This document shows positions 19,758-44,354 of a stretch of 64,000 bases of DNA, in pieces. The notes beneath the pieces are model-generated. The model made no database searches and was not told the DNA's origin. It was given only the letters and a program-made list of their open reading frames with translations. Numbering within the stretch: position 1 is the first letter of the stretch; each line of letters starts with the position of its first letter. The stretch is from a virus (taxonomy: Duplodnaviria; Caudoviricetes), in the IMG/VR virus record IMGVR_UViG_3300033463_000025, positions 64,001 through 128,000 of that record. One strand, written 5' to 3'. The translations under genes and the position numbers were made by a program.

Positions 19758-19976
19758 TTTTCACGTTCCACAATTTTATAATATAGGGGTCAACCTCTTT
19801 CGCAACCTTCCGATACTATCCACACCAAATACGAATTTGTACAGATTCGAGTTTGGCTTGCGCTTGTGGCAAGTTTCCCGTGGCTCTTACCCACACCTCA
19901 ATCTTACGTTTCTTATTATAGCACCATTAACAGCGTTTGTCAATAGCTCTATTGAATTATTTTATAAAATTCTTAA

Positions 19977-26226: not shown

Positions 26227-27168
26227 TTACACCACGAATGTACTTAATTGTGGTAACAGATTATACATTCTCGCTGGGTTCGCACCGTAATCTCTGAGAT
26301 ACGGAATAAGTACATCATTACTACCTTCACCCGTTACAGCTTTATCAACTACGTCCTTCCCCAACTTACTTACAAGATAATCATACAATCCGCGTTGCCA
26401 CAATCTTGTAGCATTAAATCTTGTATTTGAATACGGGGTAACATCTCTTGAAAACTTAGACCGTGCTCGTAGCACTACATCTTTTAGCGGAATATCCTCA
26501 ATGCTTTCGTCCTTCTCGCTGATGAGTCCCATATAACTTTTATGCCAAGTCAGGTTATAGTATTTACGTCCTCGATATGCTGATACATAAAGCGGCGTAT
26601 AATGTTGCTTCTCAAGCAGTTCCGCCGTTCTATCCGATAAAGTAATAGTCCTTCCTAACAGTTTTATTCTCGGTAAGTCCACCATATCTTCCGTGATACT
26701 ATAAAGCTCATCAAACGATGATATTCCTTCGTAGAACAGTCTAATTGAACACTCTAAATGTTCCGCTGTGCATTTGCCAGACTTGTAGATTTCGTTAATT
26801 ACATACTCAATCTCTTTCTTGTCCAACGGCGACAAGCGTTGTTTTGCACGTTCAAACAATGCTTTTGGCGATAGCTCCGCTTTATTCCACGGATTTCGCA
26901 CAGGCTCGTAAGTGTCAATATAGTATTCAAATACCTGCTTATAGAACCATACATAGGCTCTATACGTTGTTACCGATGTGCCTGGAGGATAAGCGTCCAT
27001 CAATTCGATGCAGTCTTGAACAGTGAAGTCAATGAATTGTTTACCTAATTTTTTCTCGACTTCAAATAGTTCAGGTCGCAAATAGACGTTGCGATTTCTC
27101 CGCACAACCTCATCATTACTTTTGTCGAACACTTCATCAAATAATTGCTGAGTAGAGATAACTGCCAT
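26227..27168 (-). CDS. degenerate tyrosine-recombinase-fold protein, MrpR/YopR-like repressor candidate
   Basis: Core-binding-like N-terminus; RLFYEGISSFDELYSITEDMVD resembles integrase box I but lacks the catalytic Arg; no HxxR. Confidence 0.55.
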   Translation of the reverse strand: MAVISTQQLFDEVFDKSNDEVVRRNRNVYLRPELFEVEKKLGKQFIDFTVQDCIELMDAYPPGTSVTTYRAYVWFYKQVFEYYIDTYEPVRNPWNKAELSPKALFERAKQRLSPLDKKEIEYVINEIYKSGKCTAEHLECSIRLFYEGISSFDELYSITEDMVDLPRIKLLGRTITLSDRTAELLEKQHYTPLYVSAYRGRKYYNLTWHKSYMGLISEKDESIEDIPLKDVVLRARSKFSRDVTPYSNTRFNATRLWQRGLYDYLVSKLGKDVVDKAVTGEGSNDVLIPYLRDYGANPARMYNLLPQLSTFVV

Positions 27169-27243
27169 ACAAATCTCCCCTTTAATTCCATAATAACATT
27201 ATCCACAATAATTGTCAATAGATTTTTTGAATTATTCTATAAA

Positions 27244-27615
27244 TCATATCGCTTGCAAAATAGGAAATTGAATCAGCATCGCTTTCATTATTTCGCCTAC
27301 GATATTCCCTTTTACTTCTCCGATTGGCTTATCCAAATTTTCCATTGGTAATGTACTAATCTGTTCCACCAACAACGTACTTGGCACTCGCAATCCACAT
27401 TCTTTATAATTCCAAATCTCAACGTGAATCGGTAACTTCCGTTTATTCATTTTTGAAGTAATCGGGATAACATTGACAATATCGGCATAAGTGTTATTCA
27501 AATCATTGGAAAGAATAAGCACAGGTCGATAACCACTCTGTACGCTCCCCGCCTTACTCGGCAGTTTGCACAGCCAAATCTGCCCACATTTAGGCTTATC
27601 GTTTTTGCCACACAT
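27244..27615 (-). CDS. PemK/MazF-family endoribonuclease toxin
   Basis: GQIW...GSVQSGYRPVLILSNDLNN...VIPITS...LVEQIST. Confidence 0.9.
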   Translation of the reverse strand: MCGKNDKPKCGQIWLCKLPSKAGSVQSGYRPVLILSNDLNNTYADIVNVIPITSKMNKRKLPIHVEIWNYKECGLRVPSTLLVEQISTLPMENLDKPIGEVKGNIVGEIMKAMLIQFPILQAI

Positions 27616-27759
27616 AAAACCACCTCTCTGCATTGAAATATGTAACACAAATGCAAATGGGTTTTATGCTCGCAATCAGCAATTATCCGTATTTACTTTT
27701 GGTAATTACACATCTCTCCTTTGGCAAAAGTAGTTTCCGTAGCATTATTGGTTTCTGTA

Positions 27760-27975
27760 TTATTCAAGATATTTTGTTTTAAGCTCAACGGGATTCGCCG
27801 CCTTTCCAAGTTTTTCCGCTTTATCATCTACCAGCTTATATAAGAAATATTGACTTCTCTCTATTTTGGAAGTAACAAAATAAGTTGTTCCGTTCGTATG
27901 GTACGTTTCCCACACAATCTCTGTCTTCGGTATTCCCTTAATGGCTTTATTCGGAATAGGGATGCCATCTATCAC
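27760..27975 (-). CDS. hypothetical protein
   Basis: GTG start overlapping the recombinase stop. Confidence 0.6.
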   Translation of the reverse strand: MIDGIPIPNKAIKGIPKTEIVWETYHTNGTTYFVTSKIERSQYFLYKLVDDKAEKLGKAANPVELKTKYLE

Positions 27976-28904
27976 TTAGCTACCCCCTCGGCATAACTGA
28001 ACACATCATTGACAGCTTTAATATGAATTTGCGGGTCAGTAACATTCGCGTTCTGACATCCTGCCTGATATGCCATAGTGATAAGTTCACGCAGGTCGTT
28101 GTTATCAAGCAACATCATGGGCGAGTCTGATTCGGGTGAATAGGTTTTATCACCAAAGATATAATCCTTCCAAAAGTCACCCATATCAGAAGTGTACTTC
28201 TCTGTAGCCTCACGGTCAACGCCTGTATAGCGTCTTGTTACAGCTTCACTTGAATGATTAAAGCCACGGCTTACAATCTGCATAGCATTTGGGTCTGTCT
28301 TATGAAGCTCAATGCTGGTTTTACCAAACGTCTTTCGGGAGCTGTGTGTGCCTAAATTACGTTCGATGTTCAGCTTCTTCATAACGTCCTTCAGCGCATA
28401 CATAGCACCAGAGTAGGACAACACAGAACCTTTGTGCGTTCCAGTAAACTGATAGAACACTTCGCGCTTGTAATCGTCGGTCGCTGGGTCATAACCAACA
28501 GCACAGAGATACTTGCCAATAGCAATCTTGACAGCCTCATTGATTTTTGGGGAAGCATACTTGCCTGTTTTCTGCTCTTTGATAGCCTTCAAGTTTTCTC
28601 TGAAATTACCCGTTTGCGGATTAAAGAAATCTTCCCACGTCAGCTTGCACATATCAGAAAAGCGTCGTGCAAGGTTATAAGACGTAACAAACAGAAGATA
28701 GTGAATCCACTTGTTATTCTGTTCAAAGTATTCTACCACACGCTTAGTGTCTTCGATAGATAACTCGTGAACCTCACAGCTTTTTCCTTTACACTTACTT
28801 GCTTTCTTAGCAACTGGCGTTTCTTCATGCTGAGGGAACAGCTCAATAACATTCCCTCTTGTAACTGTATTCGGATTATAATTTACAATAGCTGGTGCTG
28901 GCAT
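27972..28904 (-). CDS. tyrosine recombinase/integrase
   Basis: Complete catalytic set: RFSD, EQKTGK, HSSRK, HSS, RY; ATG 28904 with AAGGAG RBS. Confidence 0.92.
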   Translation of the reverse strand: MPAPAIVNYNPNTVTRGNVIELFPQHEETPVAKKASKCKGKSCEVHELSIEDTKRVVEYFEQNNKWIHYLLFVTSYNLARRFSDMCKLTWEDFFNPQTGNFRENLKAIKEQKTGKYASPKINEAVKIAIGKYLCAVGYDPATDDYKREVFYQFTGTHKGSVLSYSGAMYALKDVMKKLNIERNLGTHSSRKTFGKTSIELHKTDPNAMQIVSRGFNHSSEAVTRRYTGVDREATEKYTSDMGDFWKDYIFGDKTYSPESDSPMMLLDNNDLRELITMAYQAGCQNANVTDPQIHIKAVNDVFSYAEGVAK

Positions 28905-29109
28905 ATCCTTCAGCTCCTTTCTTAGATTGACTGCATTATACCACAAGGAATAACATTTGTCAATAGGTTTATTGAGTTATTTTATAAAAAGTTTTTCACA
29001 TACATGAATCAAATTTTCCATCAAGCGACTTTTAAACTAAGTTAAAAAAAACGCTATATAGATGTAATATATAATTAATTTATATAGAATACTCTATTAG
29101 TATATAATC

Positions 29110-29204
29110 ATATCTAATATAATCATATACTATATAACCTATTATCAACTATAAGATTATTAACTAATATAATAATTATCTATTAAGTTGATAATAGGTA
29201 CGTC
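29110..29204. repeat. left copy of long inverted repeat (partner 55062-55153)
   Basis: Near-identical reverse complement; internal 14-bp palindromic arms ACCTATTATCAACT/AGTTGATAATAGGT. Confidence 0.9.
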
Positions 29205-29454
29205 ACCTCTTTTTACAATTTTTCCGTATTTTGCAAAATTTCAGTTAAATGAAATGGCTGTTTTATTGTAGAAAGTTTACCTCCCTATCAGCTTCGCCCA
29301 CCCCTCTCGTTCCTCTGTGGCGTTCATATTTTGGTAGGGCACTCAACTTTTCCGTTCAAAGCAATTTAAAATGGAAAGTTGAAGTTCGCAAATATATGAT
29401 TATATCCTATATCATAGGATAGTTCGTTAATTCTATAACAAACTTTTTCAGCAT

Positions 29455-29558
29455 AAAAATAACAGCCCCCTCGGACACAAGGGGCTGTCGGTGTCAAAAG
29501 ACAACAAACAAAGGAGTTAGGGGTAACTATGTTCGCTTGTTACCATCTTTGTTCATTA
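29455..29558 (-). ncRNA. candidate trans-acting antisense sRNA complementary to the shared cassette leaders
   Basis: TTGACA(29592-29587)-17-TATAAT(29569-29564); terminator hairpin 29462-29488 plus U-tract; core AACUCCUUUGUUUGUUGUCUUUUGACAC. Confidence 0.7.
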
Positions 29559-29588
29559 AGCAAATTATACACTACTACTTGCAATATG

Positions 29589-29858
29589 TCAAGTAACATC
29601 TGGCGTAGGATATTCCACGTCGAAATCACCACGAACGGCGGCGAAGGTCAAGGATGAGATATATGCGTCATTTGTTCCGTCGCCTATGGCTATATACATT
29701 CTTGTTTGCGGTCTGATAGTAAATGTCTTATCTTCATTTAGCTTGTAGCTCTTGTGAAATGTAATCACAGCATTTCTAACTTCGTTCTTATTCCGCACGA
29801 ACAAGCCTTTGCCTGTCGTACCAATGGTAATTTCCTTGTCGTTATACAAACTAATCAT
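29589..29858 (-). CDS. hypothetical protein
   Basis: ATG 29858 with GAGGTG RBS. Confidence 0.6.
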   Translation of the reverse strand: MISLYNDKEITIGTTGKGLFVRNKNEVRNAVITFHKSYKLNEDKTFTIRPQTRMYIAIGDGTNDAYISSLTFAAVRGDFDVEYPTPDVT

Positions 29859-29868
29859 AGTACACCTC

Positions 29869-31686
29869 TTATGCAACCGTTTCTTCCAACATGAGCACTT
29901 TGCTTTCGGGAGAAACGATAAAACGCTCACGCTGGGCGAATGTCTGATTGTACGATTCCTCGCCTTCAAATTCATCTATTACTCGGCGTTCTTCTTCGTC
30001 CATAGCTTTGTATGTTTTCTTTCCGTAGGACGGCGGCAACCAGCCCTTCTTCATACAGCCGTAAATGTTAAACTTCTTCAGAACGTCAAGGTCGGTAAAC
30101 TTGATATGAACTGTACCCTTCTTGTACACGTTTACATCGAAATACTTGAAATGCAAATTCTTTGTGGTCTGCGTTTTTTCGTATGCCTCTAACCAATGGT
30201 GAAGGTCGCGCTGAATTTCATTTTCTCCACCATCAAGGAAGTCAAAACACTTTTCAATATCGTCAAGGATTCTGCCGATTTCTCCGTCATAGAAGTTATA
30301 CTTGAATTTACCCCAAATAGAATCCCAACATCTACACCACGGCACAACAACCCTGGGATTGATGATGAAAGCAGAGTTAGATTTCCAACCGCTGAAGTAG
30401 TGAACGTTTCCACTTGCTTCCATTGAATGTTTGTATGTCAGCTTTTCAAAGAGCGATATGATTTTATCCTCGATACCTTGAGCTACAGACTTGAGCATAT
30501 CAATTCTTACAGCGTAGATATTTGACAACGAAAAATCCTTCTTGGCATATTCCTTTATATCGGCAAAATACTGTTCTTTAAGATTGGAAGTAAGATTGCC
30601 GATAAATGCAGGCTTATGTAAAAGCTCATACCAATATTTGTATCTTACGGAATAAACATACTTGTTCCACTCAAAAGCCTTACCTCTTCCGTCTACCAGT
30701 CCGATATGTGCGCCGCGCTTGTATGAAGGCAACTCTTTTTCATCGCTGGCAAAGTATAAAGAAATATGCGGCGATACGGCAAGGTATTCTTCATACAGCC
30801 TCTTCCCCATCGCTATTTCTTTTTTATACATCAGCACAGCTTGACGCATATAATCAGCGGTCACAATTTCAGAAGTGTTATAGTCAGGCTCATCAACAGT
30901 GATTTCCATTTCCTCAAGCTCATCAAGGATTGTGGAATGTGCATTGTTGAACGGCGAAGGAATATCAATACGCACGATTGCACACTCAACATCTGTCTGG
31001 CGTTCAGCCTGTTTGAAAGCACCGCTAACATATTCAATCTCGGCATTGTAGAAGTCGAGCTGTTTCTTCAATTCTTTGCGCCAATTAGAATAGGGATTGT
31101 CAAGAGTCTGACGGTTAAGCAGACAAATAATCTTTCCGCCTGTTTTCTTGGCTACGTTGATTGCGTGAAGAAGATGCTCGTCGCCGTTGCTAAAAGGCGG
31201 ATTCATAATGATTAAGTCGAAGTGTTCATCGCCGTTAAACTCTAAGAAGTCGCTACCAATAACGGTATAATCTTTGTCTTTAAGGATTGCTCTAAGTCCG
31301 TCGTCAACCTCGATACAATTAACGTCTAACTTTTCACATCCCTCACGAATGTCACCAATGAGATAACGCCTTTCATCTTCATCTTGGCTATACTTTCTTT
31401 TGTTATAGTCTGCTATCCATTGAGTAGTCATGTACTTATAAATCATTTCTTCATAAGTAATTTTATAAGCAACATACTCTTCAAAGATAGGGTCTTTATA
31501 ACGATAGCTCCCCATTCTGTGGCTAACGCAGTAACGCATATAGCAAATGAAGTCTGCAATATCACCCTTGCCTGCTGACGGCTCAAGCACACTCTCAATA
31601 TCGGTCAACTTAATGCCTTTAATCATTTCCGCTACAAGTTCTGGCGGAGTCGGATAAAATTCAGTTAATGATTTGTATGTACTCAT
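29869..31686 (-). CDS. N6-adenine methyltransferase with DUF4942-like C-terminus
   Basis: FYPTP, VLEPSAGKG, IMNPPF; YFDVNVYKKGTVHIKF. Confidence 0.88.
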   Translation of the reverse strand: MSTYKSLTEFYPTPPELVAEMIKGIKLTDIESVLEPSAGKGDIADFICYMRYCVSHRMGSYRYKDPIFEEYVAYKITYEEMIYKYMTTQWIADYNKRKYSQDEDERRYLIGDIREGCEKLDVNCIEVDDGLRAILKDKDYTVIGSDFLEFNGDEHFDLIIMNPPFSNGDEHLLHAINVAKKTGGKIICLLNRQTLDNPYSNWRKELKKQLDFYNAEIEYVSGAFKQAERQTDVECAIVRIDIPSPFNNAHSTILDELEEMEITVDEPDYNTSEIVTADYMRQAVLMYKKEIAMGKRLYEEYLAVSPHISLYFASDEKELPSYKRGAHIGLVDGRGKAFEWNKYVYSVRYKYWYELLHKPAFIGNLTSNLKEQYFADIKEYAKKDFSLSNIYAVRIDMLKSVAQGIEDKIISLFEKLTYKHSMEASGNVHYFSGWKSNSAFIINPRVVVPWCRCWDSIWGKFKYNFYDGEIGRILDDIEKCFDFLDGGENEIQRDLHHWLEAYEKTQTTKNLHFKYFDVNVYKKGTVHIKFTDLDVLKKFNIYGCMKKGWLPPSYGKKTYKAMDEEERRVIDEFEGEESYNQTFAQRERFIVSPESKVLMLEETVA

Positions 31687-32054
31687 AATCTTTTCTCCTT
31701 TAACATTATTTTATTTGTCTTTTGACTTATGCTGTACGGTATTTTTTAACCTCAACCAACGATATTATTATAGCCGATTTTCGTTAAATTGTCAAGTGAT
31801 TTTACTTTTTTTTATGGTTTTTAATATTGTGGTTTTCTGTTTTAGTAATATAAATAATTATATACATTACTGCCGCAATTTGTATAAAATCGTTTACATT
31901 ATTTTGTTTTGAAAAATGACACCTTTTTGCGGACATCCGCAAATTGGTCTACAAAAATCCCTTGTTTTTCAAAATAAAACCTTTTTGCCAACGCTGGCAA
32001 AATGGTAAAAGAAAAACCACAACCGAAGCTGTGGTTTTTTATTTATACCTCTAA

Positions 32055-32318
32055 TTAAATCATAGCATATCTCCAACTGGAACACTCAATAGCATTTGTC
32101 TGTACATACACTTCTCCATCATGTGCATATAAATATTTACCTTCAACCCAATCGGAATCCAAAGAATCTTTGACTAAAATACTATCCCCTTCTTGTAATA
32201 CTATTTTATCATCAACAATTACATCTTCAATTCCGACTGAATCGCCGTATGGAGAAAATGTTAAATCTTTTTCTCTGTTATATTTATAAGACACATTATT
32301 ATTTGGAAACACTGTCAC
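32055..32318 (-). CDS. hypothetical protein
   Basis: 87-aa ORF, GAGGG RBS. Confidence 0.6.
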   Translation of the reverse strand: MTVFPNNNVSYKYNREKDLTFSPYGDSVGIEDVIVDDKIVLQEGDSILVKDSLDSDWVEGKYLYAHDGEVYVQTNAIECSSWRYAMI

Positions 32319-32358
32319 GATTACACCCTCTTAAAACCATATTAAATTGCTATTATGT

Positions 32359-32610
32359 TTAATCACTACATATTTCTATTTCGTTAAACCCATTATTATT
32401 AATAACAAGTTTTTTTGCTTTTAATAATTCTGTTGCGCTTTCACAACTACCAATTTTTAAAGAAGGATATCCAACAACATTTCCATACCATACAAATGCA
32501 CCACTTTTACGTTCCCAATATCCAGCATATGTACGACGCAAAGAAGAAGTTAAAACGTCTATGTTTAAATCTTCTTTAATTTTTTTAGATAACTTTTCAA
32601 ATACAGTCAT
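32359..32610 (-). CDS. hypothetical protein
   Basis: 83-aa ORF, GAGG RBS. Confidence 0.65.
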   Translation of the reverse strand: MTVFEKLSKKIKEDLNIDVLTSSLRRTYAGYWERKSGAFVWYGNVVGYPSLKIGSCESATELLKAKKLVINNNGFNEIEICSD

Positions 32611-32644
32611 TTTTTCCTCTTAAAAACTATTGCTTTACCTGTAA

Positions 32645-32935
32645 TCAATCTATATACTTATTTAAAATAATTTTAATCATTCCCAACTTAGCTTCTCTTA
32701 CAACCGAACACACTTCATGTAACTTAGTCATAAGAGTAAGTCCAATATCATCGTATTGAGTATATTCCGCTACAGTTTTAACACATACAATAAACAATTT
32801 TTCATAATCTCTTTCTGTTAAAGCCATAGCCTTTGACTCTGCTTTTCTAATTTCATCAAAATACCCAATCTTAATCATATTCCCGTTATGGTCTACAATC
32901 TTATACTTGACTTCATCTCGTGTATAAATCTGCAT
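32645..32935 (-). CDS. hypothetical protein
   Basis: 96-aa ORF with RBS. Confidence 0.65.
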   Translation of the reverse strand: MQIYTRDEVKYKIVDHNGNMIKIGYFDEIRKAESKAMALTERDYEKLFIVCVKTVAEYTQYDDIGLTLMTKLHEVCSVVREAKLGMIKIILNKYID

Positions 32936-32949
32936 ATTTTCACTTCCTT

Positions 32950-33198
32950 CTACATCACTTCCATAGGGTATATCTCAAATAAATCATAGTCAGCACCGTC
33001 AGCAGACATATACATTTTCACTCTATCAATGTCACCATCATAAAAGTATATATCGCCCTTAGAATTTACAGTCCATTCTAACTGAGAAAGTTCATAGGTT
33101 TTTTCACAGTATTTTTTACATTTCAATAATGAATCAAACACTTTTACTTCTCTTACTCCGCCATATTCATATCCAATAAGCAAAACAAATACTTTCAT
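32950..33198 (-). CDS. hypothetical protein
   Basis: 82-aa ORF, GAGGTG RBS. Confidence 0.65.
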   Translation of the reverse strand: MKVFVLLIGYEYGGVREVKVFDSLLKCKKYCEKTYELSQLEWTVNSKGDIYFYDGDIDRVKMYMSADGADYDLFEIYPMEVM

Positions 33199-33216
33199 AA
33201 TATCACCTCTTGAAAA

Positions 33217-33750
33217 CTACGTTTTATTCAATTCCTCTTCTAACAATAATTTTACTTTTTCAATCTCTTTTGACGTATGTGGCGTACCACCAGTATTCAT
33301 CTCGATATACCATTGTAAAACTTCCGCTTTAGTTTTAAGGTCATTCACATTAAAAAGGAAATCAATCTCAAACGGCAATTTATCTTCAAATTCCTTATAA
33401 TAATGACCAAACGCAGGTATTTCGTTATGCAAAAAGGCAAGCACAGCAGTTAGCCTTTGCAATCCATCCACACAAACAAACTCATCATTAGGACTATATC
33501 TATAATGCCAGTTAGGACAATTAAAATAAATAATCCTTGCAGATTTTCCACCTTGTAAAATAAACTCTACATAGGCAATTTGTTGAACTTTTGTCCACAC
33601 ATGACCTCTTTGAAAATCGGGATTTAATTGCAAATTAAGTTCATTAGTATAATCATCTAAAGTCTTTTCTAAATATCTCCAAGGCACATTAACTTGATAA
33701 TGACCATCTCTTGTAAGTTGAGGTATTTCAGAAAATTTCATTATAATCAC
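33217..33750 (-). CDS. DUF262 (ParB/Srx-like, GmrS N-terminal) domain protein
   Basis: PDFQRGHVW...VDGLQRLT...MNTGG. Confidence 0.85.
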   Translation of the reverse strand: MIIMKFSEIPQLTRDGHYQVNVPWRYLEKTLDDYTNELNLQLNPDFQRGHVWTKVQQIAYVEFILQGGKSARIIYFNCPNWHYRYSPNDEFVCVDGLQRLTAVLAFLHNEIPAFGHYYKEFEDKLPFEIDFLFNVNDLKTKAEVLQWYIEMNTGGTPHTSKEIEKVKLLLEEELNKT

Positions 33751-33777
33751 CTCTTATTCTATATACTTAATAAAATA

Positions 33778-34476
33778 TTATTCATCTATTATTTCAAATT
33801 CAAGCCCTCTTGTATCAACCACTATCTCATCTTCGTTTCTGGTGTTGAAATATGCAAGAGCTTGTGACTTGTTTATTGTGGCTTTCTGTATATAACCTTT
33901 TCCAAACCTATTAGCAAACCATTGTGCTGTTTTAAGATTCTGCGTCCATGATAAACCTTTCGGATTGTGCCCTGGCGTAATACCACGGTACACCGTTATA
34001 GTTTCTGGTAATGCTTTATATACCTCGTAATCTTCCGCGCACATTAATGTTTCTTTATCGGCGTGTTTAAACCATGAAGCAAGAGTCGCAACAGAAACAT
34101 TTACATCCTGATTTGGATTTTCCGACGTAATCCAAGCATCGGCAAGCAGAGAGCTAAAGTCTTTTACTGACACATAGTTCTTGATATACTTTAAGAAAGT
34201 GAGCTTATATGATTTTCTGACAATAACATAAATGTCAATTATATCGCTGGCTGATTTAATGCGATTCTCAAGCTGAGAAGTCGCTTTCTCTAACGTGGTT
34301 TCGTCTTCAAGTATATTGCCAATAGTAAAGTTTCCGTTGTCATTATAAGGGATAAGGGCTGATTCAAAAATCGGGTGCATAACGACAATAGGCGAATATT
34401 CAGTTTCTTCTACTGGCAGATATAAGAACATCAACGCAACTTCTTTTACCTTGTCAAGATTTGTTTCTTTTCTCAT
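33778..34476 (-). CDS. putative ADP-ribosyltransferase-fold protein
   Basis: TVYRG...GLSWT...AQWFA...NEDEIVV (R-S-E pattern). Confidence 0.55.
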   Translation of the reverse strand: MRKETNLDKVKEVALMFLYLPVEETEYSPIVVMHPIFESALIPYNDNGNFTIGNILEDETTLEKATSQLENRIKSASDIIDIYVIVRKSYKLTFLKYIKNYVSVKDFSSLLADAWITSENPNQDVNVSVATLASWFKHADKETLMCAEDYEVYKALPETITVYRGITPGHNPKGLSWTQNLKTAQWFANRFGKGYIQKATINKSQALAYFNTRNEDEIVVDTRGLEFEIIDE

Positions 34477-34491
34477 AAGTAATACCTCTAT

Positions 34492-34698
34492 TTATTTTGA
34501 TTCAGCTTTTTCAAGCCGTGTCCATAGCTTTTCACTCAACCACATTTTGTTAAAGCAGGTTGTTCCAAAGTGTTCAGCCGTTCCGTCAGAGTATTTGACT
34601 GTAACTATTTCTGTTATCCATAATCCGCATTTATCGCAAGTGCAACCGTTGTTTCTTCCAACCTTGTTGGTCGTGATACTTCTAATGCTTTTCATCAC
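34492..34698 (-). CDS. small zinc-finger protein
   Basis: CDKC...GTTC. Confidence 0.55.
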   Translation of the reverse strand: MMKSIRSITTNKVGRNNGCTCDKCGLWITEIVTVKYSDGTAEHFGTTCFNKMWLSEKLWTRLEKAESK

Positions 34699-34706
34699 TT
34701 TTTCCT

Positions 34707-35051
34707 TTACTCTTGTTTTAAATACTTTTCTTTAAAATCAGCCTTGAAAAATTTACATATTTCTTCGGCAATCTCACAAGCTGATTCAACTTCTTTGATA
34801 AATAATTTAACACAATCAGAATTTCCGTTAAGTGATACTGTATTTATTTCATAATTACTATCAAGTTTATTATCATCCGCCATTACATATAAATATATTT
34901 TTGCTCGGCTAACAGGGAATGAATGATTGATATGCACATCAAATGTGCGGTTTTCATACCAAGTAAACCAAAACTGTGTTTCAATATTTAGATTAAATCT
35001 AAAAAATATTCCGTCATCCTCAAGCGATTTTTTATATTCAAGTATGAACAT
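34707..35051 (-). CDS. hypothetical protein
   Basis: 114-aa ORF. Confidence 0.65.
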   Translation of the reverse strand: MFILEYKKSLEDDGIFFRFNLNIETQFWFTWYENRTFDVHINHSFPVSRAKIYLYVMADDNKLDSNYEINTVSLNGNSDCVKLFIKEVESACEIAEEICKFFKADFKEKYLKQE

Positions 35052-35074
35052 TATAAATTCACTTCTTTCTTTAT

Positions 35075-35437
35075 TTAGTTACCGCCTTTTAGCTGTGTTA
35101 AATCATAATTCAAGCGTACCCAATCATCAAAGCCAAGAACGGTATCAGTGTTCTTTTCGACATATTCCTCCATCAATTCTTCTTCAAGTCTGCAACCATC
35201 AACGCTATAATATACCCAATGGAGCTGTCCATATGTGTACATATTATTAATCTCGTTTCTGATTTTTACATCGCTTTCGCCGTAGTATTCCTGTCCTACA
35301 AAATGTTCTAAATCGCCTATATCCTCAAGTCCTGTGTAATAGTCGATTCTGTCATTAATGATAATAGCCAAAACAAATCTGTTGTTATCATCTGGCATCG
35401 TAAACTTTAATACTTTACCAATAGTCGGGTTTTTCAT
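35075..35437 (-). CDS. acidic hypothetical protein
   Basis: 120-aa ORF, AGGAGG RBS. Confidence 0.7.
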   Translation of the reverse strand: MKNPTIGKVLKFTMPDDNNRFVLAIIINDRIDYYTGLEDIGDLEHFVGQEYYGESDVKIRNEINNMYTYGQLHWVYYSVDGCRLEEELMEEYVEKNTDTVLGFDDWVRLNYDLTQLKGGN

Positions 35438-35455
35438 ATAAAATTCCTCCTTTTG

Positions 35456-35965
35456 TTATATATTTTTTCCGTCATTTAGTAAAAAGTAACCTTCATATTT
35501 GCAACCTACGGTCTTTGCAAATTCTTTACGTTCATCGTCGGTCAGCTTGTCGGTCGTTAATCTACGTTCAACGCTCTGAATGTAGTGATGATGATTATAC
35601 TTGCTGATAACGCTTTTAACTGTATCGTTGCTTATTGTTTTGAAGTTAGCTCCTACATCTTTTCCGCTGTTCTGAATTATAACCATGCACATACGTTGCC
35701 AAGCTATACGGTCGCCGTTAATGGCTTTCTTGAGCATTTCGTTTAGGTTATCGCCTTCAATTACCTGCCCATTCTTATTGATGAGCCTCGCAACATATTG
35801 AACACCTGCGATTTTAGCTATTGTTCTAAGCTGTGCTGTGGTAAATTTACCACGCAAACACTTTGTAGAGAAATTAGCGACGCTTGCACCGATAGCTCTT
35901 GCATAGTCGTCAACATTTGTTCCTGTTAAATAGGATAGCATAGCAAATTTCTGTTTGTAATCCAA
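35456..35965 (-). CDS. tandem XRE-like HTH protein
   Basis: YARAIGASVANFSTKCLRGKFTTAQLRTIAKIAG plus a second degenerate unit; own promoter. Confidence 0.65.
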   Translation of the reverse strand: MDYKQKFAMLSYLTGTNVDDYARAIGASVANFSTKCLRGKFTTAQLRTIAKIAGVQYVARLINKNGQVIEGDNLNEMLKKAINGDRIAWQRMCMVIIQNSGKDVGANFKTISNDTVKSVISKYNHHHYIQSVERRLTTDKLTDDERKEFAKTVGCKYEGYFLLNDGKNI

Positions 35966-36139
35966 TCTCTTCGCCTCCTTTTGCTAAATTATACCACACC
36001 TACAAATCTACGTCAAGTATTTTTGCGCTTTCTTTTAATTTTTAATATTCAATTTTTCCGTTAGTTGTAAACAATAAATCTTTGTTTTTCAAAATCGGCT
36101 TTTTCTGCTGGCTAAAACAAAACCGCCGAAGCTCGGCGG

Positions 36140-36496
36140 TCAGTTTAATTCATCAGCATAATTGAAAACATACGGTATTCCGTCACGGTACGGATAAATC
36201 ACAAAGCTATCATAGATTTTCCCTCTAAACTCGCCTTCAGCGAATACTCGCATAGCATGAGGACTTCTTTCTTTACGGACAACAGCTTTATCTTTTCCAT
36301 CAAATAGCATTTTGATTCTATCGGCTGAACAATATCTACATTCAAACTCAATCAGCTCAAAGATGTAGGATTTTTCCGTTTCTTTAACTCGCATCGTGAT
36401 ATAGTACGGGTCAAATACTTCATCGGACGGATTAACACACTTGTAAATCCCAGGCGTTAGCTTGTTCCTTTTCTCGTTGGCTTTCATGTTTTCCAC
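36140..36496 (-). CDS. hypothetical protein
   Basis: 118-aa ORF. Confidence 0.65.
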   Translation of the reverse strand: MENMKANEKRNKLTPGIYKCVNPSDEVFDPYYITMRVKETEKSYIFELIEFECRYCSADRIKMLFDGKDKAVVRKERSPHAMRVFAEGEFRGKIYDSFVIYPYRDGIPYVFNYADELN

Positions 36497-36499
36497 CTA

Positions 36500-36694
36500 C
36501 TATGCAAACTTAGATGCTAAACACCTATAGTAATCTCGCCGTTCTCTTATTTCCTGCCACTTGTTATCTTGTCCGTGTTCGCTTTCATAATCGGTCATCT
36601 TGATAGAGTAATCCTTTGCCGTAAGCATCAGAACGGCGTAAATTTTACTTGATTCTAATTTGGTAAGTTCTACTGTCATACTTTTCCTCCACAT
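36500..36694 (-). CDS. hypothetical protein
   Basis: Short ORF, GGAGG RBS before MTVEL. Confidence 0.55.
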   Translation of the reverse strand: MWRKSMTVELTKLESSKIYAVLMLTAKDYSIKMTDYESEHGQDNKWQEIRERRDYYRCLASKFA

Positions 36695-36729
36695 AAAACA
36701 TAGATAATTAAAACTAAAATTGCCATATA

Positions 36730-37110
36730 TCAGCCCTCCAATGTTAGAACAAAATCAAGAAGTGTGCTGTAGTAATCTTCCGCAACTTCGCCAGCGATGT
36801 AGAAATGGATTTCTCTTATCCACTGGTAAACAAATTCTACATCGTCCTCGTAATCGTGCGCCCATTCCGAGGCTGTGAACGCCTTGAATTTATCCCAATT
36901 CTCGCGGATTAACTTACTCCATTCACATTCAATACTGCAATCGTCGATTTTCTTAATCACGTTTACACGCTTCATCAGCTCGACGCAGAAGCGGTCGTAG
37001 TCATCCTTTGGATTCTCAATATAGCACACTGTAACTTCGCCGCTAATCTCTGTATCGTAGCAATCGTAATCGTTTTCTTCAATCTGCAAGTAATCATACA
37101 GTTTAACCAT
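36730..37110 (-). CDS. acidic hypothetical protein
   Basis: 126-aa ORF, GGAGG RBS. Confidence 0.7.
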   Translation of the reverse strand: MVKLYDYLQIEENDYDCYDTEISGEVTVCYIENPKDDYDRFCVELMKRVNVIKKIDDCSIECEWSKLIRENWDKFKAFTASEWAHDYEDDVEFVYQWIREIHFYIAGEVAEDYYSTLLDFVLTLEG

Positions 37111-37113
37111 AGC

Positions 37114-37959
37114 TCATTCCTCCACTAAGTTTTCGTCAATCAACAGGTTTTTAATTATTTCTTCATTCGCCGCAACCAGACGATAATACTTTCCCCATTC
37201 GCTATACTTATGCTTGAGGTCTAACAAAATGGAATTGTAGAAAGATTTAGCTGTATCGGTCGGCTTGATTTCTTTAAAGCTATAAATAACTTCTTTACCA
37301 AGATAGAGCTTGTAACCAAAAATATCATGTTCAAAGTGTAACAGCTTGCCAATCAGAGAATAGTCAAGGTCATACACATACATATCTGTGTTGGTGATAA
37401 ACTCTTGAATTTCCTCAACCGTCATCAGCTCTGCATTTTCCATGATGTAGTTAATGTTGTTGACGCAGATATTCTTGTCATTGACATCGAGCTTATCTTT
37501 CCAGCTCTCGCCGCAATCTTTTTTCATGTAGTCAGCAGGAGTTAAAGGATTATCATAGTCAAGGTCTGATTCTCCATAATGGATAAACGCATACTTAATA
37601 ACAGGCTCTTCATCTTTTCTTGCAAAAACGTCAATTAAAAGCTGTCCATTGTTATTGCAATAGTCTGTAAAGATATATTCAGGCAGACTCTCGCCGTAGC
37701 CATATTCCAAGTATTCTTTGATGATGTTCGCGCTTATGGCAATATCCTTCATATCAAAGTTTACATCAAAGTATCTACGCAGTTTAATGATTCCAGTATG
37801 GTCTGTGAGCTGTGAATAGATATAATCTTCATAATCTTTGATATACTCAATACCATGTCTTGCTCGGCTTATCATACGCTCGGAATAATTCCACGAATAA
37901 TAATTAGCCACAATAAGTTTTCCATTAAATCTTACATAAATTTGTGAACGCTGTCCCAT
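37114..37959 (-). CDS. hypothetical protein
   Basis: 281-aa first gene of a cassette. Confidence 0.8.
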   Translation of the reverse strand: MGQRSQIYVRFNGKLIVANYYSWNYSERMISRARHGIEYIKDYEDYIYSQLTDHTGIIKLRRYFDVNFDMKDIAISANIIKEYLEYGYGESLPEYIFTDYCNNNGQLLIDVFARKDEEPVIKYAFIHYGESDLDYDNPLTPADYMKKDCGESWKDKLDVNDKNICVNNINYIMENAELMTVEEIQEFITNTDMYVYDLDYSLIGKLLHFEHDIFGYKLYLGKEVIYSFKEIKPTDTAKSFYNSILLDLKHKYSEWGKYYRLVAANEEIIKNLLIDENLVEE

Positions 37960-38208
37960 AATATACTTCCTTTCTGTATTTTGTTATCTTTTGACTGCTC
38001 TTAAATTATAGCATAACTCAATAGAATTGTCAACTTATTTTATAGAATTTAATAATTTTTAATATTGAAATTAATTGCAGTTTTTTCACCGATTATGTTC
38101 ATTTTTCAAAACGCAGAAAATTTGTAGCACACAAAAACAGCACCGCAAATTGCGATGCCGTTTGATAGATTTGAGGTATTTTGTTTGACAGATTTGAGAT
38201 GCTATATG

Positions 38209-38454
38209 TTACATAGTATCAAGTAAGAAATCCCAAGTATGAACATATTGCTGTGCTTCTCGTATAGTCTGAAATTTTGGAGCTTCCCAATCAAGAACAT
38301 TATACAGAAGATTGTTTAATCCGTCTTTGTTATAAAAAGCCAACTGATATTTTTCTTTCTCTGTTTTTCTGTCTGTCTTAGGTACGTCAACAACTATATA
38401 CTTTTTACCGTTGAATGAAAATACCCTATTAGATGTGACGGGTGTAATTGTCAT
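38209..38454 (-). CDS. hypothetical protein
   Basis: 81-aa ORF. Confidence 0.6.
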   Translation of the reverse strand: MTITPVTSNRVFSFNGKKYIVVDVPKTDRKTEKEKYQLAFYNKDGLNNLLYNVLDWEAPKFQTIREAQQYVHTWDFLLDTM

Positions 38455-38470
38455 ATCATACCTTTTGGCG

Positions 38471-38920
38471 TTAAAGCCTTTCCTTTAATTCGTCGGTTGC
38501 TCTTTCCATAATCTCGTGATAATCAGGCTTGTCCTTTAATGTATCTGTGTCATATGCCGCGCAGTCGAGTTCCGCGATGATTCGCGCTAAGTCTTCTTTG
38601 CTAAACGATGTATAGTGTTGCATGATATAATCACAGAGATTTGCGTTTCTCATGGCTTTAATAAGACCACGGCGAACGCGGATATAATCGGGATGCTCTA
38701 CATAATAGATTGTATTTGAAAATTCATCTTCTGTCGGGTCGATGTCTTTTCCTCGCATTTCGGGCATAAGTTCAAGTGCGCGATATACAGCGTCTTTCGT
38801 TTCGGTAATCCCTTCAAATTTATGCTCAAGAATTGTACGGGCAAGATGTTCTAATTCTGTGTCGTTCTCGTCGCGTGTGTTCTCTTCAAACGTCAGGCGA
38901 TAAAGTCCTTCATATGTCAT
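38471..38920 (-). CDS. hypothetical protein
   Basis: 149-aa ORF, AAGGAGG RBS. Confidence 0.75.
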   Translation of the reverse strand: MTYEGLYRLTFEENTRDENDTELEHLARTILEHKFEGITETKDAVYRALELMPEMRGKDIDPTEDEFSNTIYYVEHPDYIRVRRGLIKAMRNANLCDYIMQHYTSFSKEDLARIIAELDCAAYDTDTLKDKPDYHEIMERATDELKERL

Positions 38921-38944
38921 TGTGGTAGCCTCCTTATGATTGTG

Positions 38945-39232
38945 TTAAAAGTAGCCTGTTGTCCATTCAAATTTCCAATCATCATATTCGTCTTCTTTAT
39001 TCCATCTCCATTTGGTATCTCGCAAGTATTCTAAAACAGCAGGAGAGTTTCTTCTGTATCTAAAGGGCTTTACTCCTTCTGTTGATGCTCGTTCTTGTTC
39101 ATCTGTTTTGATAAAGTCGAATATGATTTCTAATGCAAGTTCTTTTTCCTCTGGCGTTAAATCATCATAATCTCTCACGGGAAATTGCTGATACTTAACA
39201 GGTAGGTTTTCCATAGTTTCATTTAGTTTCAT
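38945..39232 (-). CDS. hypothetical protein
   Basis: Start moved to ATG 39232. Confidence 0.65.
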   Translation of the reverse strand: MKLNETMENLPVKYQQFPVRDYDDLTPEEKELALEIIFDFIKTDEQERASTEGVKPFRYRRNSPAVLEYLRDTKWRWNKEDEYDDWKFEWTTGYF

Positions 39233-39445
39233 ATTAGCCACCTTTTTAAACCTCCTAAGTTTGTTTATTTTGCCTTTCGACACCACTATTATATCAAATT
39301 ATTTTTGTTTTGTCAAGTTATTTTCATGTTTTTATTAATTTTTAATATTGTATTTTTCTGCTATATACAGAAAATTGTTGTTTTGCAAAATCAAGTTTTC
39401 CATTATTATAAAACAAAAAGCCTTGAAAATCAAGGCTCTGTCTGT

Positions 39446-39865
39446 TTATAATTCTATTCCATCGAGATAATATATTTCTTCGTAGAATCCGCCACAAGCA
39501 ATAGCGATATTCTGAAGGTCGTCTACAATAAATCTTCCCTTGCTCACACGTTCAAAAGCGTTCTGTCTTGAGTGCATCATGCCTTTATCTGCAAGCACAG
39601 CATAACTCGTGCCCGTCTTTTCCATTAGCTCTTTAATCATAGCAGTAAAGCTAATACCTGTTATGGTTTTTCCACCAATAACAAACTGTGATGTATAGGT
39701 CAACTCTAAAATTTCAGCCAGTTTGTCTATTTCTTCCTTTGTATATAACTCTTTGCCGATTATATAACTCATCTTGCTTTTATCAACACCGTATAATTCC
39801 GCAAGTTTCGGTACTTTCATTCCGCGTATTTTCATAGCCGCTTTGAATTTTTCCGTTCGTGCCAT
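39446..39865 (-). CDS. tandem XRE-like HTH protein
   Basis: Two HTH-like halves (KLAELYGVDKSKMS; AVLADKGMMHSRQNAFERVSKGRF..DDLQNIA); similar layout to 35456..35965. Confidence 0.7.
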   Translation of the reverse strand: MARTEKFKAAMKIRGMKVPKLAELYGVDKSKMSYIIGKELYTKEEIDKLAEILELTYTSQFVIGGKTITGISFTAMIKELMEKTGTSYAVLADKGMMHSRQNAFERVSKGRFIVDDLQNIAIACGGFYEEIYYLDGIEL

Positions 39866-40104
39866 AATGATACCTCTTATACATATGATGATTGTTTTTC
39901 AAAATTAAATATTTCTGTGAAGCGTAAACAGCTTTCCTTAATTTTTCAAAATTGTATTTTCCTGTAAAAGAGTATATCAAATCCGCGCTGGTTTGTCAAG
40001 CGGTATTAGTATATCATTTACTTTTTAATATTAAGTTTTCCGACAATTAAAAGAGGACAGCCGAAGCCGTCCTCAATTAGTCTTGACGTATTTTTGTCAA
40101 TTAA

Positions 40105-40542
40105 TTATGTTATTGACGTTTTATAGTCAACTGTCGGAAGTTTAGATACCCACGTTATAAGTTCCGATAAACAATGTAACTTCTCTTTTTCAAACTCTTC
40201 TTCCGTAGTCGCTCTGATAATGTATTCAATTACATTATCCTTCTTGTTGTGGTATTCAAACGGATAAGGAGGCTGATATTCCGCAGTCGTAAAGAGTTCA
40301 TAATCCAAATGAAAAGATACATAAATGTTGATGTTTCCGTTGTAATGTGACTCACAACAGCTCGCAGTCTTATATCCTTTTTCATTCAAAAGCCTTATGA
40401 TTCCTTGCATATTCTGGTCTATAAAGATTAACTCCCACGGCGGATAAAGTTCGCAAGTGCATCTGTTTAACTGCTGAAAACAGTACGGGCATACATAGTT
40501 TAGGTAATCTTTCTTTGCAGGTCTATGTCGATTCAACGCCAT
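40105..40542 (-). CDS. hypothetical protein
   Basis: CPYC, ID..M..II.LLNEKGYKTASCCESH motif. Confidence 0.75.
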   Translation of the reverse strand: MALNRHRPAKKDYLNYVCPYCFQQLNRCTCELYPPWELIFIDQNMQGIIRLLNEKGYKTASCCESHYNGNINIYVSFHLDYELFTTAEYQPPYPFEYHNKKDNVIEYIIRATTEEEFEKEKLHCLSELITWVSKLPTVDYKTSIT

Positions 40543-40574
40543 ATAATCGCCCCTTTGCTCTGGTTATACCACCA

Positions 40575-41078
40575 TTATACCACAGCTTTTGAAGCCTTGC
40601 AAGGATTGTATTGATTATATTCTGTAGGGTTTTTGACGCTTTCTCGAACAGCTTTCATAATATGATTCGGTGTGATTCCAAAATCTTCACAGCCCTGAAC
40701 AATTCCGTAGAAGTAAGTCGCCGCAGGCGGAGCGATACCCTTTCGCTCCTTAGTCATAACATAAACGGTAGCTTCTACGAGTTCGCCATCTTCAGTAATG
40801 ACGTTCACTTTCTCGCGGGTATAGTATTTCGGATAACCTTCATACATATCAAGCCTTCCCCACTCTGACGGGTTAATGTCCCAAAGAGCTACAGGCAGAA
40901 CATCCTTGTCGTCGCCTGTCGGGATAATATCAGCGTGAATATTGAATACCAACTTGTAACCTTTGAGATATGCTTTACCAATGGGCACAGATAACGGGCA
41001 ACGCCATCTCATCTGCTCTAAATTCATATTCGAGCCATACGCAACATAATAATTTTTCTTTGTCTTTTTCTTAGCCAT
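40575..41078 (-). CDS. gamma-glutamylcyclotransferase (AIG2-like) family protein
   Basis: YVAYGSNMN...RCP...LDMYEGYP..Y. Confidence 0.9.
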   Translation of the reverse strand: MAKKKTKKNYYVAYGSNMNLEQMRWRCPLSVPIGKAYLKGYKLVFNIHADIIPTGDDKDVLPVALWDINPSEWGRLDMYEGYPKYYTREKVNVITEDGELVEATVYVMTKERKGIAPPAATYFYGIVQGCEDFGITPNHIMKAVRESVKNPTEYNQYNPCKASKAVV

Positions 41079-41111
41079 AATCTATTCCTCCATTTCTTTT
41101 AATACAAATAC

Positions 41112-41423
41112 TTAATTTGACGCAAGATTTTCTTCAATCTTTGCGATACATTCTTCTATGGACTTATAAAAGCCCTTGCAACTTGTTTCTTTTAAATTGT
41201 TATCTTTTGTAAGCAAATAATCAACGATTTCAAAATGACTAAATTCGCCATCATATTTGATTCGGCAAGGTCTAACTATATGATAATAACCTTTCTGGTT
41301 CATATAGTAATAGAATTTACCTTCAGCAGATTTATAATACTTATTGATTGTAAATCTGGTTCTTTTTCCAGTCATACGGTCAATAGTTTCATGCGCTTCT
41401 TGTGAATAACTCGGCAACATCAT
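41112..41423 (-). CDS. hypothetical protein
   Basis: 103-aa ORF, GGAGG RBS. Confidence 0.65.
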   Translation of the reverse strand: MMLPSYSQEAHETIDRMTGKRTRFTINKYYKSAEGKFYYYMNQKGYYHIVRPCRIKYDGEFSHFEIVDYLLTKDNNLKETSCKGFYKSIEECIAKIEENLASN

Positions 41424-41427
41424 TGTG

Positions 41428-41745
41428 CTATACCTCCTTAATTGTTATATCATATTTTCCCCATTCATTACTTTTACTTGCTATAATGGATAATCTTTTC
41501 AGCTTGGTAATATTGCCAGCATCATCAAATTCGACGATAGAGAATTTATCCTCTAAATAATAATCCCCCATCGTTTGTAACAGCTTATTTAACGATGCTT
41601 TAGCTGTCCCAATCTTACTAAACAACTTTTCGGGTTTTAACAATTCTGCTTTCTCCCAAAACACTTGATACTTATTCCAACCGTTTATTAAATAATAAGT
41701 TCCTTCTGGTGATTCACTCTTTATTGTGTACCTCATATTTTCCAA
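41428..41745 (-). CDS. hypothetical protein
   Basis: TTG start, AAGGAG RBS, own promoter. Confidence 0.7.
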   Translation of the reverse strand: MENMRYTIKSESPEGTYYLINGWNKYQVFWEKAELLKPEKLFSKIGTAKASLNKLLQTMGDYYLEDKFSIVEFDDAGNITKLKRLSIIASKSNEWGKYDITIKEV

Positions 41746-44353: not shown

Positions 44354-44354
44354 A

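Follow-up and report, generated by a model that had tools for sequence, protein, structure and literature searches.

A short unit on the minus strand of a rumen phage genome carries, in reverse complement, the leader shared by a dozen separately promoted gene cassettes. Does this unit encode a small RNA (sRNA) that silences the cassettes in trans, or does the shared sequence act in another way, for instance as DNA? The window analysed here is a stretch of 64,000 nt, positions 64001-128000 of a 143,758-bp IMG/VR phage record that derives from bovine gut metagenomes, with short terminal repeats and a G+C content of 36.8%. A search of the phage collection with the whole phage returned no near match. 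Judged by its sequence, this phage is a distant relative of SPbeta. The top match of its DUF4942/methyltransferase-like protein is in Bacillus phage SPR, a YonO-type RNA polymerase gene (RdRP-fold) adjoins the cassette array, and YonG/YonJ domains occur in the relatives described below.

Cassette leaders and their inverted copy

Nearly every gene between positions 1 and 54000 lies on the minus strand, and about 17 cassettes occupy this strand between 31.8 and 54 kb. We regard their genes as early on the grounds of promoter type and position. The 5′ part of a cassette holds one to three ~57-bp repeats (box C, cagaaaa-N4-5-ATTTTGMAAAA) and a related element, box A (AATATTAAAAATTAATAAA), which ends 14 nt before the -35 box. 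The promoter itself reads TTGACA-17-TATAAT and is followed by box B (TGTCAAAAGACA), an A-rich spacer and a strong Shine-Dalgarno (SD) sequence; one to four genes of unassigned function come next, and a GC-rich terminator closes the cassette. Box B begins 5-6 nt after the -10 box in ~11 of the ~17 cassettes and is therefore located at the 5′ end of the predicted mRNA. The exception is the cassette of gene 31686, where box B lies ~40 nt downstream of the -10 box.

Altogether 12 leaders combine box B, or a close variant of it, with an SD sequence, where a first-pass annotation of this DNA had spoken of at least 10 leaders with both halves. They are listed here by the start of the gene they precede, with the net energy predicted for their pairing with the candidate sRNA:

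53958-54015, minus strand: leader of the first cassette, gene 53957, UGUCGAAAGCACAACAAAC ... CAAAGGAG; best predicted partner, net -20.5 to -25 kcal/mol
52614-52662, minus strand: box-B leader of gene 52613; -18.6 kcal/mol
50517-50556, minus strand: box-B leader of gene 50516, which encodes a DnaJ-domain protein; -19.1 kcal/mol
49682-49723, minus strand: box-B leader of gene 49681; -17.1 kcal/mol
48431-48466, minus strand: box-B leader of gene 48430; -18.8 kcal/mol
47400-47440, minus strand: variant leader of gene 47399, UGUCACAAAGACA, whose loop has an additional base
46202-46241, minus strand: box-B leader of gene 46201, GAUA variant; -13.9 kcal/mol
44944-44978, minus strand: box-B leader of gene 44943; -17.8 kcal/mol
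43450-43486, minus strand: box-B leader of gene 43449; -14.1 kcal/mol
39242-39282, minus strand: box-B leader of gene 39241, UGUCGAAAGGCA variant; -17.1 kcal/mol
37960-37998, minus strand: box-B leader of gene 37959; -17.4 kcal/mol
31727-31716, minus strand: box B in the leader of gene 31686

The inverted copy lies at the end of the operon that begins with gene 31686, and the surrounding features are as follows:

29869-31686, minus strand: DUF4942/methyltransferase-like gene, 605 aa, with box B in its leader
29589-29861, minus strand: orphan 90-aa gene, the last gene of the cassette transcribed from the promoter at 31795-31767; its 3′ end carries the sRNA promoter
29564-29592, minus strand: perfect sigma-A-type promoter (TTGACA at 29592-29587, 17-nt spacer, TATAAT at 29569-29564; 12/12 matches)
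29453-29557, minus strand: predicted non-coding RNA of ~105 nt, its start placed ~7 nt past the -10 box and its end in the T-tract
29491-29518, minus strand: anti-leader core AACUCCUUUGUUUGUUGUCUUUUGACAC, in the order anti-SD, anti-spacer, anti-box B
29453-29489, minus strand: intrinsic terminator, an 11-bp GC-rich stem (29489-29461) and then a U-tract
29529-29657, plus strand: 42-codon ORF behind the inverted leader copy, judged not to be a gene

The core is the reverse complement of box B, the A-rich spacer and AAAGGAG; the sequence given for it in the first-pass annotation proved correct as written. Read on the plus strand, the inverted box B directly precedes a perfect AAAGGAG. By chance, AAGGAG would occur within 30 nt of any one site with a frequency of ~0.005, and the same holds for a perfect SD plus ATG after the inverted copy. 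The exact 10-mer core of box B, GTCAAAAGAC, has nine copies in the genome, where 0.33 would be expected: seven in cassette leaders, one in a coding region and one on the plus strand, at 29493. Every other exact or one-mismatch copy of box B lies in a minus-strand leader, which bears out the earlier claim that the copy at this locus is the sole inverted one. Similarity between locus and cassettes is confined to 12-13 nt plus the SD, so the locus does not belong to a larger duplication. Two other origins were considered and ruled out: a fragment of a duplicated gene, as the likeness ends after 13 nt, and an invertible segment, as flanking inverted repeats are absent apart from the terminator.

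Box B is a near-palindrome, TGTC-N4-GACA. Among its variants are changes of GACA to GAUA and to GGCA, both of which give G-U pairs, and the copy with an extra loop base. The variant stems all still fold, at -0.2 to -2.3 kcal/mol, and the outer pair of the stem is lost in three copies. Because the stems are weak and three copies lack the outer pair, we take these stem-preserving variants as a mere hint of a role at the RNA level.

A predicted small RNA and its potential pairing with the leaders

The first-pass annotation described the locus as a perfect minus-strand promoter driving about 100 nt that hold no ORF on that strand and end in a GC hairpin and U-tract, with the upstream box of the target promoters missing. 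All of these elements were recovered. The longest minus-strand ORF inside the RNA has 9 codons and no SD, the tract after the terminator stem reads TTATTTTTAT, and the promoter has neither of the upstream repeats, box A and box C, that are found at the cassettes. The terminator stem lies ~65 nt downstream of the promoter, and the terminator lies ~95-105 nt from the predicted RNA start. When folded, the 105-nt RNA (29557 to 29453) reaches a minimum free energy of -34 kcal/mol, compared with -20.9 +/- 3.5 kcal/mol for shuffled sequences (z = -3.8).

The unit is tightly fitted into the operon that hosts it. The 90-aa gene ends ACT TGA CA, so that its TGA stop codon (29589-29591) forms part of the sRNA -35 box, and the stem at 29489-29461 also terminates the methyltransferase/90-aa operon. 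From stop codon to terminator stem this operon measures 100 nt, against 0-33 nt in 12 other cassettes, and the surplus 75-90 nt of 3′ UTR is exactly the promoter plus the anti-leader. About 0.1 perfect promoters are expected per genome by chance, and the other 13 in this phage all precede genes. The anatomy of the locus is thus real and non-random, and an accidental arrangement is very unlikely.

By prediction, the unit shows what is generally expected of an sRNA gene, namely a promoter of its own, an intrinsic terminator 50-300 nt downstream and no translatable ORF. Conservation adds nothing to this, as no homologous unit occurs in the DNA read from the related contigs introduced below (G004:C85/C54 and L177-L180). 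An Rfam search at the locus gave no significant family; the RsaE/RoxS covariance model (RF01820) scored 18.6 bits (E = 2.4) against a gathering score of 79, so the RNA is not a member of that family. On these grounds we consider that positions 29453-29557 of the minus strand probably are a genuine sRNA gene. As box B stands in the leader of the 605-aa gene and the sRNA in the 3′ UTR, the operon mRNA would carry both a target, at its 5′ end, and an anti-target.

We then asked how well the predicted RNA would pair with the leaders. Net binding energy was calculated for 193 candidate gene starts as the energy of the cofolded pair minus those of the two separate folds, and therefore includes the cost of opening both RNAs; a genome-wide duplex scan that ignores accessibility was too noisy for use. 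Thirteen of the 17 top-ranked partners among the 193 starts are first genes of cassettes, as the first-pass annotation had predicted, although this ranking is partly circular because an antisense to any leader-like sequence would pair with every leader. When leaders are cut back to the predicted start site, box-B leaders reach net energies of -14 to -20.5 kcal/mol, cassettes without box B -3 to -11 kcal/mol, and the 177 other gene starts a median of -4.3 kcal/mol (Mann-Whitney p = 3e-8 for cassette leaders against other starts). Shuffled sRNA cores give a median of -7.5 kcal/mol, and scrambling the anti-box B while keeping the anti-SD gives -9.7 kcal/mol. As such energies would be expected of any leader antisense, the ranking does not by itself establish an sRNA function.

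The predicted duplex has two parts, 12-20 bp at the 5′ end of the mRNA and 8-11 bp at the SD region, and the spacer between them is predicted to loop out. In the free RNA, prediction has the mid-core segment UUUGUUUGUUGUC almost always paired with the RNA's own 5′ end (unpaired probability ~0). Possible seeds are CUCC (~0.5 unpaired) and a UUUU loop (~0.7 unpaired). Mini-hairpins with 4-nt loops and stems of 3-5 bp are predicted at -0.2 to -4.8 kcal/mol; loop-loop kissing between those of the sRNA and those of the leaders is pure speculation.

Related phages and the origin of the locus

Relatives of this phage were sought with several probes. A box A-promoter pattern applied to species genomes recovered a 67-kb contig of a rumen metagenome-assembled genome (MAG), G004:C85; this contig and contig C54 jointly represent a true relative, which is syntenic and shows 30-82% protein identity. 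Homologues of the first-cassette protein then gave three further relatives (L177-L179) and a more distant one (L180). Other probes gave nothing comparable. The exact core had no match in viral contigs, where the 20-nt element gave two unrelated GC-rich matches, the box A-promoter pattern chance matches only and the 488-aa cassette protein no relative. The pattern TATAAT-N6-box B had one viral and 77 metagenome matches, essentially the number expected by chance and none with a cassette array. Cassettes are absent from the relatives of the portal protein and of the integrase-like proteins, and the first-cassette protein is absent from 400 other genomes of the MAG's order.

In the relatives the cassettes have the same architecture and box A is conserved, but what follows box A differs. 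Nearly all of their cassettes carry a palindrome, TATAGCTTGCTATA, in the spacer between the -35 and -10 boxes, with AAAGACAA abutting the -10 box, and have no box B. Their first cassette alone, which is the orthologue of the 53957 cassette and lies beside a divergent YonO-like gene, carries (T/C)GTCAAAAGACAACAAACAAAA immediately downstream of the -10 box. Plus-strand positions 29492-29512 of our locus are identical at 21 of 21 nucleotides to the first-cassette leader of G004:C85. In the relatives the 21-nt element is confined to this first cassette and functions there with no known sRNA. The orthologous first-cassette protein of those relatives is just 57% identical, and the phage's own first-cassette leader has drifted (UGUCGAAAGCACAACAAAC), yet it remains the best predicted partner of the sRNA. 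Perfect identity of the element despite 57% protein identity argues, at the sequence level, for selection or recent capture and not for a decaying remnant.

The antisense unit itself has no counterpart in these phages. In ~150 kb of relatives' sequence we found no inverted copy and no comparable promoter-terminator unit; the region just upstream of the integrase-like gene of C54 holds no unit of the sRNA type, and a screen of a relative for antisense RNA against its own common leader, TTAGAATTTTGTATAAAGGAG, found none. Covariation of sRNA and leaders in related phages, to which the first-pass annotation had looked, therefore gives no support, and neither does conservation. Within the same strain there is equally little to compare: other bovine-gut contigs are identical over 29101-29817, leaving no variation to analyse.

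Next to the locus lies a module that is syntenic with the relatives, made up of an integrase-like gene, a 71-aa gene, a MazF gene and a second integrase-like gene. The second integrase-like protein (26227-27168), encoded 2.3 kb from the sRNA locus, matches YopR/MrpR weakly (23% identity over 174 aa, E = 0.001), and the product of 27972-28904 has no similarity to YopR. A relative lacks the methyltransferase gene, the orphan gene, the sRNA locus and a 490-nt AT-rich spacer between its array and the integrase-like gene; these four look like an insertion in front of the immunity-like module. Contigs from other samples join cassettes in different orders, which identifies cassette boundaries as recombination joints between strains. 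Two features are thus peculiar to this lineage, a box B that has spread to ~11 cassettes and an antisense to it. Their joint presence fits joint evolution of sRNA and leaders, and would equally fit recombination that homogenises promoter-leader modules.

A candidate trans-acting silencer, its rivals and its precedents

The best single explanation of these observations, which we favour only tentatively, is that the sRNA silences the cassette leaders in trans. A constitutive promoter of its own, read by host sigma-A polymerase, would drive the sRNA gene, which would lie within the 3′ UTR of the methyltransferase/90-aa operon; release from the operon transcript would probably be a second source of the RNA. 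Pairing with the SD region of a target would involve the single-stranded CUCC/anti-SD segment of the sRNA, and the anti-box-B segment would follow once the internal stem of the sRNA opens. At least 12 separately promoted early cassette mRNAs would be targets, each paired at two regions, one of which comprises box B plus the A-rich tract in the initial 12-20 nt of the mRNA, with the variable leader spacer looped out of the duplex. Either ribosome binding would be blocked, or the duplex would be marked for cleavage of the RNase III type.

Because the sRNA promoter has no regulatory repeats and faces a dozen UP-element promoters, its most likely role would be the removal of early transcripts that arise by leakage, a safeguard operating alongside the immunity-like integrase-like/MazF module. 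A total shut-off of early genes during lytic growth is less likely, given a stoichiometry of one sRNA promoter against 12 stronger ones. Production of the RNA, pairing in vivo, direction of the effect and timing are all points that we infer from sequence. Still more cautiously, we suggest that the sRNA could be a master post-transcriptional brake on a regulon of ~12 independently promoted early operons of the host-takeover type, recognised by a two-part address of SD and a 5′-terminal barcode dispersed across the promoter-leader units of this lineage, and that barcode and antisense may have arisen together from the leader of the first early operon.

Box B may instead act as DNA, as an operator or oriented 'stoperator' of a phage repressor; this is the main rival, which we consider unlikely while taking it seriously. 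The repressor could be one of the MrpR-like/integrase-like neighbours or an HTH protein of the array; the copy at 29492 would block plus-strand transcription from entering the early array, and complementarity at the RNA level would be a by-product. TGTC-N4-GACA does sit 5-6 nt past the -10 box, at +1, a position from which bound proteins block initiation. Operators acting as DNA across a whole regulon are usual in this lineage, because nearly all of the relatives' cassettes carry the spacer palindrome; SPbeta MrpR and mycobacteriophage L5 set precedents for oriented repressor sites in many copies, and the protein with E = 0.001 to YopR is encoded close by. Such an operator would leave unexplained why the inverted copy is followed by a perfect SD and an ATG, and why it comes with a perfect promoter and a lengthened 3′ UTR. 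The 1-nt insertion between half-sites and the two transitions that keep G-U pairs would be tolerated better by an RNA stem than by a rigid dimer site, and the distant box B of the 31686 cassette also fits an operator poorly. The two roles of box B, as DNA operator and in RNA, could coexist. More doubtful again is the view that the locus is an evolutionary leftover, a leader fragment of the first-cassette type that was acquired as an inverted piece upon insertion of the methyltransferase cassette; the hairpin would then be a plain operon terminator, and any RNA made would either be without regulatory function or have an unrelated function. The absence of the methyltransferase gene, orphan gene, locus and spacer from a relative, the recombination joints at cassette boundaries and a similarity of merely 12-13 nt plus SD are what a capture would leave behind. 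A perfect consensus promoter within 100 nt of such a fragment would arise by chance at a rate of ~2e-5, however, the 21/21 identity is atypical of a decaying remnant, and the length of the 3′ UTR is an outlier.

Two further readings concern the promoter and terminator, or the plus strand, and both strike us as improbable. Since a strong promoter and a strong terminator within ~100 nt are the hallmark of Q-type gates, the unit might be a promoter-proximal terminator gate in the style of lambda PR′-6S RNA-tR′/Q, at which transcripts from a constitutively firing promoter would end at 29461 and an antiterminator would allow read-through into the AT-rich region and the integrase-like/MazF/MrpR-like genes. 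The spacing of promoter and terminator is right for such a gate, and the genes downstream of the locus run in the same direction as the sRNA. It is unlikely chiefly because the next gene owns a perfect promoter (28963-28935); moreover, 490 ORF-less nt intervene, the anti-leader sequence would go unexplained, and no Q-like or put-like family matched. A shade less probable still is a cis-antisense pair resembling P22 sar/ant or a type I toxin-antitoxin system, in which the minus-strand RNA would repress a plus-strand mRNA encoding the 42-codon ORF and starting at a weak promoter within 29079-29400. The plus strand does have box B with a perfect SD, then after 12 nt an ATG that begins an open frame of 42 codons, and weak promoter-like sites upstream, but neither a consensus promoter nor a terminator was found there. 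The ORF overlaps the 90-aa gene on the opposite strand, and its product is not hydrophobic, has no Pfam match and has no homologue among 1.84 billion representatives; we find no support for it as a gene and judge it not to be one. The 90-aa protein in turn found no homologue but itself among 5.8 billion proteins.

Seen as a trans-acting silencer, the candidate sRNA has several partial precedents. The phage antisense RNAs sar, c4, P4 CI and OOP each act on one operon (PMC12197685). Like P22 sar, P1/P7 c4 and P4 CI, it would be a short phage RNA aimed at ribosome-binding sites or repeated targets, encoded in or beside an immunity region. Those RNAs are bounded by a promoter and a terminator or made by processing, and their targets (ant, icd-ant and the P4 left operon) are reached in cis-antisense or through two or three repeats on one transcript. 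Here, by contrast, the sRNA lies 2-24 kb from its predicted targets, and ~12 independent transcription units share the target sequence; a comparison with sar, c4 and P4 CI gave no sequence or Rfam relation. In its placement the locus resembles 3′-UTR sRNAs of the MicL/DapZ type, which have their promoter inside the upstream gene: the sRNA promoter extends into the 3′ end of the preceding coding sequence, and sRNA and operon share one terminator. MicL and DapZ are enterobacterial, depend on Hfq and act on host mRNAs, and they differ from the present case in that the operon hosting the candidate sRNA is itself a predicted target. Firmicute sRNAs typically combine a CU-rich anti-SD seed with a terminator downstream of it. 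Like RsaE/RoxS, the candidate has ~100 nt, a single-stranded C/U-rich anti-SD motif, an intrinsic terminator and many putative targets; unlike them, it would need a second, 5′-terminal box besides the SD for target choice.

Protein-based networks offer the closer parallel to the repeated leader motif. T4 RegB is an endoribonuclease and RegA a translational repressor, and the post-transcriptional inactivation of many early mRNAs through their SD/initiation regions is what the sRNA would share with them; in T4, however, the regulators are proteins and their targets have no shared 5′ box, whereas here the regulator would be an RNA and the targets have a common 5′ box. SPbeta MrpR binds the SPBRE element at ten promoters, several of the sites lying in leaders near the ribosome-binding site and always in gene orientation (PMC10516654), and mycobacteriophage L5 has more than 20 oriented 13-mer stoperators (PMC9283540). 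As in both, a short motif is repeated here at some 10-30 early promoters or leaders in gene orientation, and a putative integrase-fold protein weakly similar to MrpR is encoded nearby. Boxes A, B and C show no sequence likeness to the 15-22-mer SPBRE (AAATACAAAWAATATGTATA), and neither of those systems has an RNA gene antisense to its motif. The orientation rule holds for 11-12 copies of box B, and the copy at the sRNA locus is reversed relative to minus-strand transcription. A brake of the kind proposed above would be an RNA-based counterpart of the stoperator or SPBRE repressor networks. One RNA addressed to the common 5′ box and SD of a dozen operons would be a novel variation on phage antisense and anti-SD control, and no new category.

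Whatever the function of the sRNA, a lineage of large SPbeta-like rumen phages is now defined by its early cassette arrays, in which the early region is built as a series of promoter, leader, genes and terminator with several layers of repeated boxes. Known phage regulatory RNAs act on one gene or operon, and regulon-wide silencing of early genes has so far been the work of proteins, either repressors that bind many operators or T4 RegA/RegB. If the proposed silencing is true, a dozen transcription units would be co-regulated by a single 100-nt RNA through a common 5′ address, which would add a design to those known for the control of lysis-lysogeny and early shut-off and would provide a portable leader tag with its cognate sRNA for multiplex repression in Gram-positive-type hosts.

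Cassette array and mosaic early regions

About 17 promoter-leader-gene-terminator cassettes, arrayed on the minus strand, make up the early region (window 31800-54100). Ahead of each cassette lie one to three copies of box C, a repeat of about 57 bp (cagaaaa-N4-5-ATTTTGMAAAA), and the related box A (AATATTAAAAATTAATAAA) stands at a constant 14 nt from each -35 box. Both repeats are probably recognized by a DNA-binding regulator distinct from whichever factor reads box B, the near-palindrome at the 5′ end of the predicted cassette mRNAs.

Contigs from other bovine-gut samples, compared over window 28901-48900, link different cassettes directly, with joins such as 31822 to 34444, 34764 to 38160 and 45103 to 48635, indicating that cassette boundaries act as recombination points and that early regions are mosaic. 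In related rumen phages, namely the contig G004:C85 (L159-L162) and three further relatives (L177-L179), nearly all early cassettes carry the conserved palindrome TATAGCTTGCTATA within the -35/-10 spacer, and several share a long common leader with the 3′ end TTAGAATTTTGTATAAAGGAGAATG.

Second promoter family and the AT-rich spacer

The integrase-like gene is among those driven from a second predicted family of promoters (TTATAAAATAAT...cTATTGACAAA-N-TATAAT). The members of this family are:

Window 28935-28963
Window 19915-19943
Genome 63679-63707
Genome 52136-52164
Genome 31513-31541

Distant relatives (L028-L031) keep the family's ACTATTGACAAA signature, and in some of them a palindrome, AGTAAATGATTTACT, lies directly 3′ of the -10 box.

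The ORF-free spacer between the terminator of the predicted minus-strand sRNA and the integrase-like gene holds a lone box C palindrome (ATTTTGCAAAAT, window 29228-29239). It also contains highly AT-rich sequence (window 29050-29200 and 29403-29421), which includes iteron-like repeats (TATATAATCATAT and its relatives) as well as a perfect inverted repeat of 8 bp, TATCCTAT-ATC-ATAGGATA. Possible roles for the region are an origin, attP arms or a set of repressor sites; it is missing in G004:C54, another contig of the related rumen phage.

Neighboring genes and phage lineage

Further features are as follows:

Window 26227-28904, minus strand: module of integrase-like (310 aa), 71-aa, MazF/PemK and MrpR-like (313 aa) genes
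Window 53079-53957, minus strand: first-cassette protein gene, with homologues on phage contigs
Window 55479-58277, plus strand: YonO-type RNA polymerase, 932 aa
Window 61636-61672, plus strand: abiF RNA motif (Rfam)

The integrase-like to MrpR-like module, whose synteny is kept in all relatives examined, is probably the lysis-lysogeny control region. A Pfam search with the 932-aa protein gave no match; we assign it as a YonO-type single-subunit RNA polymerase from the RdRP (PF05183) matches of its orthologues in relatives. Its gene and the first early cassette are divergently transcribed. The abiF motif, which scores 48.5 bits (Rfam gathering score 37), is here located in a phage genome.

Phage contigs 140-165 kb long encode more than 170 homologues of the first-cassette protein, some with Amidoligase_2 (PF12224). 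These homologues mark a sizeable and hitherto undescribed SPbeta-like lineage of gut phages.
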